Positions 62,239 to 62,360 of a stretch of DNA of 64,000 bases are shown one piece after another. The position numbers were made by a program, and so were the translations under genes. This DNA is from Escherichia coli (lineage in GTDB: Bacteria > Pseudomonadota > Gammaproteobacteria > Enterobacterales > Enterobacteriaceae). The DNA is taken from assembly GCF_003334315.1 (NCBI RefSeq), contig NZ_QOWR01000013.1; one strand, written 5' to 3'. The stretch's first letter is position 1. Every line of letters begins with the position of its first letter. Under the pieces are notes generated by a model. The model was not told the origin of the DNA, searched no databases, and worked only from the letters and a program-made list of their open reading frames with translations.

Positions 62239-62360
62239 AGCAAACTCCAGATAAGTGCTTTTTTTATGATTACGCCACATCATAAAAAGAATAAAAAATA
62301 TCGATTTATGTCGAGTCTATGCAAAAATGATATGGATTACCGGATTGCGAGAGAGCGCTA

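Follow-up and report, generated by a model that had tools for sequence, protein, structure and literature searches.

An Escherichia-specific palindrome over the predicted core of the LysR-activated lysA promoter

Our analysis of the divergent lysA–lysR intergenic region of Escherichia coli indicates that its perfect interrupted palindrome is a genus-specific palindrome over an already known type of promoter. The symmetry is probably fortuitous; the dyad would lie across the core of the LysR-activated lysA promoter rather than constitute a site selected for its symmetry. Among bacterial regulators, LysR is the founding member of the largest family. The dyad itself carries little weight. It belongs to a regulatory region that has been studied for a long time, and nothing about the dyad suggests a selected element. 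The comparison of about 125 lysA–lysR regions yielded predictions, at base resolution, of a LysR box, its partner block and the −10 element and start of lysA. The dyad was studied within a 64,000-nucleotide stretch of E. coli DNA (the window), in which the two genes and the parts of the dyad are placed as follows.

60976–62238, minus strand: lysA coding sequence (diaminopimelate decarboxylase, 420 aa), from the open reading frame and the RefSeq annotation, with its ATG at 62238.
62261–62270, no strand assigned: left arm of the dyad, TTTTTATGAT, read from the sequence.
62271–62278, no strand assigned: spacer of the dyad, TACGCCAC, 8 bp, core of the inferred −10/extended −10.
62279–62288, no strand assigned: right arm of the dyad, ATCATAAAAA, Escherichia-specific, at about −17 to −26.
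62361–63296, plus strand: lysR coding sequence (LysR-type activator of lysA), from the open reading frame and the RefSeq annotation.

The first-pass annotation had described a perfect interrupted palindrome at 62262–62287, which reads TTTTATGAT-TACGCCAC-ATCATAAAA, and had placed it about 24–50 bp upstream of the lysA start codon. Both statements were borne out. Complementarity continues outward by one base on each side, such that the arms are 10 bp long and the dyad lies 23–50 bp from the start codon; the pair beyond the arms (T62260/G62289) is a mismatch. As a test of chance, the 122-bp intergenic region that contains the dyad (34% G+C) was shuffled 5000 times with preservation of dinucleotides, and perfect dyads with a spacer of 0–15 bp were counted. 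Dyads with arms of at least 10 bp were found in 0.34% of these shuffles and those with arms of at least 9 bp in 1.1%. The 64-kb window as a whole contained six perfect dyads with arms of at least 10 bp, compared with 1.0 ± 1.1 in shuffles. The other five (1565–1590, 14511–14535, 15375–15404, 20982–21009 and 55979–56004) are all G+C-rich and look like terminators or REP-type elements. The lysA–lysR dyad of E. coli is real, and its occurrence by chance is moderately unlikely. Since about 0.2 such dyads are expected by chance over the approximately 50–60 intergenic regions of the window, it is uncommon without being exceptional.

galR, lysA, lysR and ygeA lie in the 2.5 kb surrounding the dyad, a segment found with 100% identity in several complete E. 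coli genomes. The core between 62260 and 62336 is invariant across E. coli, and polymorphism is confined to the lysA leader and the length of a T-run. This T-run, at 62260–62266 over the inferred lysA start/discriminator, has six residues in 5114 genomes including MG1655 and seven in the allele of this window, which is shared by 263 complete E. coli genomes; both alleles keep the 10-bp arms of the dyad intact. The open reading frame finder extended lysA to 435 aa, starting at 62283, via two in-frame ATG codons (ATGATG, 62278–62283, minus strand) inside the dyad. Given a transcription start near 62262, as proposed below, ATGATG would be untranscribed and the 420-aa protein would start at 62238 behind GGAG.

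We sampled 80 LysR-encoding loci from the Enterobacteriaceae, one genome per species. A divergent lysA lay upstream in 79 of these loci, usually across a gap of 112–135 bp. Unambiguous alignment was obtained for 73 intergenic regions, 6 from Escherichia and 67 from other Enterobacteriaceae. The perfect dyad was present in all 6 Escherichia sequences and in 0 of the other 67. Among these 67 sequences the spacer was the best-kept part of the dyad, with 98% identity to E. coli, and the left arm was 84% identical; within this arm the T-run and the AT at 62269–62270 were kept, and positions 62266–62268 were variable. Identity in the right arm was 46%. Contiguous complementarity outward from the loop averaged 1.06 bp in the 67 non-Escherichia sequences and never exceeded 4 bp. 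The Salmonella sequence is already complementary to the left arm at 6 of 10 positions, and its counterpart of the right arm (62280–62288) reads CCTTAAAAG. When 74 distinct in-register sequences were examined, 50.9% of the cells were paired as compared with 50.1 ± 0.8% in shuffles, and excess covariation was not found in the dyad, the score being 0.073 versus 0.077 in shuffles.

A first homologue search returned only relatives with at least 84% identity. Searches were then made of a library of representatives at 50% identity and, by DNA pattern, of metagenomes. The distant set combined representatives with 52–73% LysR identity and the results of the metagenome scan, which used the non-enteric form of the upstream blocks described below. 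It contributed 53 more pairs with lysA on the minus strand and lysR on the plus strand, or 46 non-redundant regions, in which LysR is 51–90% identical to that of E. coli. Three candidates that were not divergent lysA neighbours (P0126, P0127 and P0156) were left out, as was P0223, in which the lysA neighbour was not visible on a 1.2-kb contig. The E. coli palindrome was absent from all 46 distant lysA–lysR regions. Inverted repeats over the corresponding spot in these regions occurred at the shuffled rate, with none in 74% of the regions and none with arms of at least 7 bp. The symmetry of the dyad is not conserved beyond Escherichia: the comparison with other lysA–lysR regions that the first-pass annotation had proposed found it absent from the 67 Enterobacteriaceae and the 46 distant loci.

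The sequence under part of the dyad is kept. An invariant 11-mer, T-R-TGGCGTAAT (T-R-T-G-G-C-G-T-A-A-T in the lysA sense), runs from 62279 down to 62269 in 74 enterobacterial sequences; it represents the conserved part of the dyad, the spacer and the inner left arm, and its R position varies only between G and A. Expressed in alignment columns, T15–T23 (TGGCGTAAT) were invariant in the 74 distinct sequences, as were T13, T15, G16 and G17 in the enterobacterial set, with G or A in column 14. The elements that we assign to this core and to the sequence upstream of it are listed here.

62262 (±1–2 nt), minus strand: predicted lysA transcription start, 7 nt downstream of the inferred −10.
62269–62274, minus strand: inferred lysA −10 hexamer, CGTAAT in the lysA sense, in the register of the signature found in distant lineages; the G at −11 is unusual.
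62275–62279, minus strand: T-R-T-G-G, extended −10-like, at −17 to −13 in the lysA sense, directly upstream of the hexamer.
62291–62312, no strand assigned: block B (ATAAAAAATATCGaTTTAT...), probable promoter-proximal LysR (activation) site, overlapping a weak −35.
62319–62333, no strand assigned: predicted LysR box ATGCAAAAATGATAT (ATKCA-N4-TGATAT, with T-N11-A), centred at 62326, about −64, overlapping the lysR −10/+1.
62335, plus strand: lysR transcription start, 26 bp upstream of the lysR ATG, as reported from earlier work (PMC5002191).

Every lysA-sense register between block B and the lysA start codon was scanned (61 registers). At the register of 62274..62269, 89% of 36 non-enteric lineages had A−11 together with T−7, and T−10 was also present in 78%; in any other register A−11 and T−7 occurred together in at most 31%, leaving a single sharp peak. 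The −11 and −7 columns had been unspecified in the metagenome search pattern. Across 46 lineages the profile was G−14 in 35, G−13 in 28, C−12 in 37, A−11 in 33, T−10 in 38, A−8 in 29 and T−7 in 42, and the predicted +1 column held A in 26 and C in 14. The hexamer varies by clade (CATCAT, CATGAT, CATGCT, GATACT, TATAGT in L088, and others, with the TGGCGTAAT core in enterics). T−7 is invariant among these forms, A−11 is found in 33 of the 46 lineages, and the E. coli/enteric clade has G−11 (CGTAAT). Two further properties of sigma-70 extended −10 promoters were found. TRTGG, which resembles the 'TRTGn' extended −10 motif reportedly described by Mitchell et al. in 2003, was invariant in the 74 enterobacterial sequences, with G−14 in 35 of the 46 lineages, and the position of the hexamer was fixed relative to the activator site by a 24/35-bp spacing in 80 of 80 sequences. 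From these patterns we infer a lysA −10 at 62274..62269, a start near 62262 and a leader of approximately 24 nt with a GGAG ribosome binding site. Because the core combines a fixed register, a variable sequence and a −10 signature, it would be a contact for RNA polymerase rather than the site of a regulator whose helix is unchanged.

On this assignment the dyad would span −26 to +2 of the promoter. The left arm would extend in the lysA sense from about +2 to −8, where it takes in the 3′ end of the −10 as well as the T-run/discriminator. The −10 region would be formed by the spacer and inner left arm, and the discriminator/start region by the outer left arm with its T-run. The right arm would fall in the stretch from −17 to −26 between the −10 and the −35/activator site, a stretch that is unconstrained in other genera. 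The first-pass annotation had also suggested that the dyad was an element of the lysA promoter. That suggestion holds for the location, where the core appears to act as a −10 across lineages, but not for the symmetry itself.

The predicted promoter resembles activator-dependent extended −10 sigma-70 promoters in having T-R-T-G-n before a hexamer that ends in TAAT, G−14 in 35 of 46 lineages, a weak −35 and a fixed position relative to the activator box. It differs from them, with the start itself placed by comparison, in the enteric hexamer CGTAAT with its C−12 and G−11, other lineages having A−11. Position −11 is normally the most critical of a −10, and G−11 counts against the hexamer proposed for enterics. 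With a simple −10 matrix, CGTAAT scored −0.8 versus 4.9 for TATTTT (62300..62295). TATTTT is also conserved, and the metagenome pattern forced it, so the register scan is no independent test of TATTTT. The enteric G−11 is always accompanied by the invariant TRTGG directly upstream. A hexamer with G−11 may mean that the promoter is strictly LysR-dependent or that another protein is bound as well. The invariance of the 11-mer exceeds the usual constraint imposed by RNA polymerase and may reflect an additional protein contact there, as in the case of the 'IR3' site considered below.

Two more conserved blocks were apparent upstream of the 11-mer in the Enterobacteriaceae alignment, GAATAAAAAATATCGtTTTaT (62288–62309) and TCTATGCAAAAATGATATGG (62315–62335). 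In 80 of 80 sequences the three blocks kept exact separations of 24 and 35 bp, the former between block B and block A and the latter between block B and TGATAT. Length variation was confined to the lysR leader, which held all the large insertions, and to the stretch separating lysA from the first block. In the 46 non-redundant distant regions AAAATA(T/G)C and ATTCA-N4-TGATATG are both present with unchanged spacing, except that L090 has AAAATGC where the others have AAAATA(T/G)C. The metagenome loci had been selected on the block pattern; the loci from protein searches keep the pattern too, except L090. The predicted LysR box is kept from the Enterobacteriaceae to loci in which LysR is 51% identical, and the recognition helix of LysR was essentially invariant in six protein-derived distant orthologues. 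A weight matrix for the box gave 23.6 bits at 62318–62334, its sole match in the intergenic region. By our own reading of the sequence, TGcAAAAAT (62320–62328) ahead of the lysR start is an extended −10.

This arrangement resembles that of other divergent regions controlled by LysR-type proteins (ilvY-ilvC, cynR-cynTSX, oxyR-oxyS and metR-metE), which have a recognition site at about −65 and an activation site at about −35/−45. In the lysA–lysR region a 15-bp T-N11-A box lies about 64 bp upstream of the predicted lysA start and overlaps the promoter of the regulator, and the second block overlaps a weak −35. The layout has rigid spacing (80/80), and the same one was proposed by Oliver et al. 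in 2016 (PMC5002191). The conserved blocks are likely to be LysR sites, an assignment made by sequence comparison. LysR would occupy the box at 62319–62333 (about −64) and, because this overlaps the lysR promoter, repress its own gene. A second LysR site at about 62291–62312, over the weak −35, would allow the diaminopimelate-bound activator to recruit RNA polymerase to a poor lysA promoter; this mechanism of activation is proposed by analogy with the regions named above. In most Enterobacteriaceae block B (62291–62309) forms a dyad, ATAAAA-N7-TTTTAT, which is imperfect in E. coli (A for T at 62304). As a candidate symmetric LysR site, block B is preferable to the lysA-proximal dyad.

LysR binding sites have never been footprinted (PMC5002191, Oliver et al. 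2016, BMC Genomics 17:686). Oliver et al. placed a postulated lysA start 22 bp before the coding sequence and, relative to it, predicted three LysR sites at −64, −43 and −9 (PMC5002191). The start that we place at 62262 and the box at −64 agree with these independently postulated positions (PMC5002191); IR1 corresponds to the LysR box at 62319–62333 and IR2 overlaps block B. The same article credits Huerta and Collado-Vides 2003 with an older computational prediction, a TTGCAT/TATTTT promoter some 52 bp upstream from the lysA coding sequence (PMC5002191). Our comparative data support the start postulated by Oliver et al. over this older database prediction. An experimental lysA start was not found among the supplement rows searched (Kim 2012, Mendoza-Vargas 2009, Ettwiller 2016 and Conway 2014), the Ettwiller 2016 supplement having been searched by coordinate prefix in both genome versions. 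A literature search on promoter names returned nothing relevant to the lysA start, and a full-text search of the literature for the dyad sequence gave 0 matches. In published occupancy data, IPOD-HR detected condition-dependent occupancy in the lysA–lysR intergenic region without base-level assignment, the exact site being unknown (PMC8282354). A genomic SELEX peak is located in the lysA/lysR spacer at coordinate 2976930 (PMC5493296); the table that lists it belongs to a section on heat-shock sigma constitutive promoters, and the resolution of the peak is too coarse for assignment to an element (PMC5493296).

If the older promoter were the true one (−35 TTGCAT at 62324..62319, −10 TATTTT at 62300..62295, start at about 62288–62290), the dyad would be a hairpin in the 5′ leader or a downstream operator, affecting mRNA stability or elongation. 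We consider this highly improbable. TATTTT is conserved and ranks first or second among −10-like hexamers in most lineages, the promoter is cited as an earlier prediction of Huerta and Collado-Vides 2003 (PMC5002191), and the leader would fold into a 10-bp stem, with a minimum free energy of −11.3 kcal/mol for 57 nt. This fold, however, barely beats shuffles (z = −2.0; 9 of 200 fold as well), the hairpin pairing is unconserved and shows no covariation in 74 sequences, and there was no Rfam match at E ≤ 1. A structured RNA leader was rejected as an identity of the dyad in its own right on the same grounds: pairing at the shuffled level, no covariation, no Rfam match and z = −2.0. It is mainly on geometry that the older promoter is disfavoured. 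The LysR box and its partner would come to lie near −37 and −16, respectively, the geometry of a repressor, whereas LysR is a required activator; moreover, a site at −65 would fall beyond 62337, in a stretch that is unconserved and carries large insertions in several species. The older promoter would also leave the sharp −10 signature at 62274..62269 unexplained.

The first-pass annotation had considered the dyad a plausible LysR operator. The form of the dyad does not fit this identity: it has 10-bp arms and an 8-bp spacer (28 bp in all) rather than being a T-N11-A dyad of about 15 bp. Unlike LysR-type sites it would lie over −10/+1 and occurs in Escherichia only, and its centre would be at about −12.5, counted from the start that comparative data predict, versus −65 or −35/−45 for LysR-type sites. 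A wider version of the idea is that the dyad, or its core, is a promoter-proximal operator whose symmetry was perfected in Escherichia, either for LysR as 'IR3', with inducer-free LysR blocking the −10, or for another dimeric regulator, for example ArgP, which senses lysine. A centre near −12.5 would be ideal for a repressor, TRTGGCGTAAT is invariant in 74 enterobacterial sequences beyond the usual need of a −10, a palindrome of this kind has a chance rate of 0.3%, and the occupancy seen by IPOD-HR in the intergenic region is condition-dependent (PMC8282354). The highly conserved site predicted by Oliver et al. at −9 maps to about 62263–62277 and overlaps the left arm and spacer (PMC5002191). 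'IR3' and the dyad share this overlap and the same basis in strong conservation; they differ in that 'IR3' is a 15-bp repeat of the ATATC-n5-GATAT type at −9 that does not include the right arm.

Even so, an operator at this position seems unlikely. The symmetry is absent outside Escherichia while LysR and ArgP are conserved. In the wider sampling the sequence at the 'IR3' spot changes by clade and keeps only the −10 signature, whereas the recognition helix of LysR is invariant; this pattern fits RNA polymerase better than LysR and suggests that the third 'LysR site' of Oliver et al. is the −10 element. The LysR-box matrix reached at best −6.3 bits over the dyad, a score to be read with its low power for degenerate secondary sites, IR2 scoring poorly too. 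The centre of the core is about 51 bp from the main LysR box, and one LysR-type tetramer normally spans less than this distance.

The fragment that titrates LysR provides a further argument. Stragier et al. 1983 confined the LysR sites to a 73-bp titrating fragment that begins 48 bp upstream of the lysA coding sequence, as related in a later article (PMC5002191). Because 121 − 48 = 73, the fragment so described would be the rest of the intergenic region without all but 1–3 bp of the dyad. In this second-hand account, then, a fragment that titrates LysR excludes both the dyad and the core (PMC5002191), and a comparison of LysR sites with the dyad on this basis argues against the operator. Taking the dyad for a LysR operator was thus not supported, as the dyad is found only in Escherichia, the LysR helix is invariant and the box lies elsewhere. 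The two observations that the first-pass annotation had named as incompatible with its proposal, a LysR site elsewhere and a dyad that is not conserved, were both made, the former at second hand.

We return to the reading in which the symmetry is fortuitous. A small cluster of substitutions in the right arm, in the ancestor of Escherichia, would have completed complementarity with the constrained left side. Drift, or one quasi-palindrome template switch, would each suffice for this change, and a neutral origin of the symmetry is what we infer. A template switch is suggested by the likeness of the dyad to its products: the substitutions are clustered in about 9 bp, length is unchanged, the arm matches a constrained neighbour, and a second independent perfect dyad occurs on the same core in Kluyvera. 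The template switch is purely conjectural, and, as the Salmonella sequence is already complementary at 6 of 10 positions, a few point substitutions would also suffice. The Kluyvera dyad (L040, L042 and L047) is GTAATCAT-N7-ATGATTAC, with perfect 8-bp arms, at the equivalent of about 62251–62273 in the window. In this dyad the partner of the conserved ATGATTAC is located towards lysA and not towards lysR, and the dyad is independent of the Escherichia one.

The 0.3% shuffle rate and the independent Kluyvera dyad count against a fortuitous symmetry, and together they hint at mutational bias or recurrent selection. If the right arm had been selected, the outcome would be a perfect 28-bp palindrome centred on the lysA −10, where a dimeric repressor, whether inducer-free LysR or another regulator, would find a new operator. 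We regard this as quite improbable; were it true, there would be a genus-specific layer of lysA repression, with the 8-bp dyad of Kluyvera as a parallel case. Selection might instead have acted on a new −10. The sequence TATGAT is present at 62284..62279 in the lysA sense and at 62265–62270 on the plus strand, which could provide an extra or shifted promoter in Escherichia. No −10-like hexamer of the E. coli intergenic region scores higher than TATGAT at 62284..62279 (6.5), which is found only in Escherichia. Our own reading of the sequence revealed no usable −35 at 16–18 bp, a consensus scan finds no sigma-70-type promoter here, and the resulting start would fall within the conserved −10, some 10 bp upstream from the conserved start; an adaptive new promoter is accordingly a poor prospect, and one that we rate as very unlikely.

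Several other identities were considered and rejected. A bidirectional promoter of the Warman type would require a different geometry of the two TATGAT hexamers. An intrinsic terminator was dismissed, there being no terminator-like site in 62150–62450 and the stem being A+T-rich. Sites for sigma-54, CRP, Fur, LexA and IHF were rejected by our own reading against consensus sequences.

Some features of the surrounding region were noted in passing. Insertions in the lysR leader of L026, L033, L063, L065 and L080 lie directly after TGATATGG. They are 70–230 bp long, consist of palindromic repeat units of the CCCTCTCCC...GGGAGAGGG type and occur in several species. In the metagenomic locus L090 a toxin-antitoxin pair of the mazE/pemK type lies between the lysA regulatory core and lysR. 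The lysA-side core is intact in every locus that bears an insertion. On the other side of lysA, galR and lysA are convergent, with 6 bp between their stop codons (60969–60976 of the window). The galR-lysA and lysR-ygeA pairs are among the convergent overlapping-transcript pairs of a 2025 survey made with ExcludonFinder (PMC12288877). For lysA and lysR this survey includes convergent pairs only and is uninformative on the lysA start (PMC12288877).
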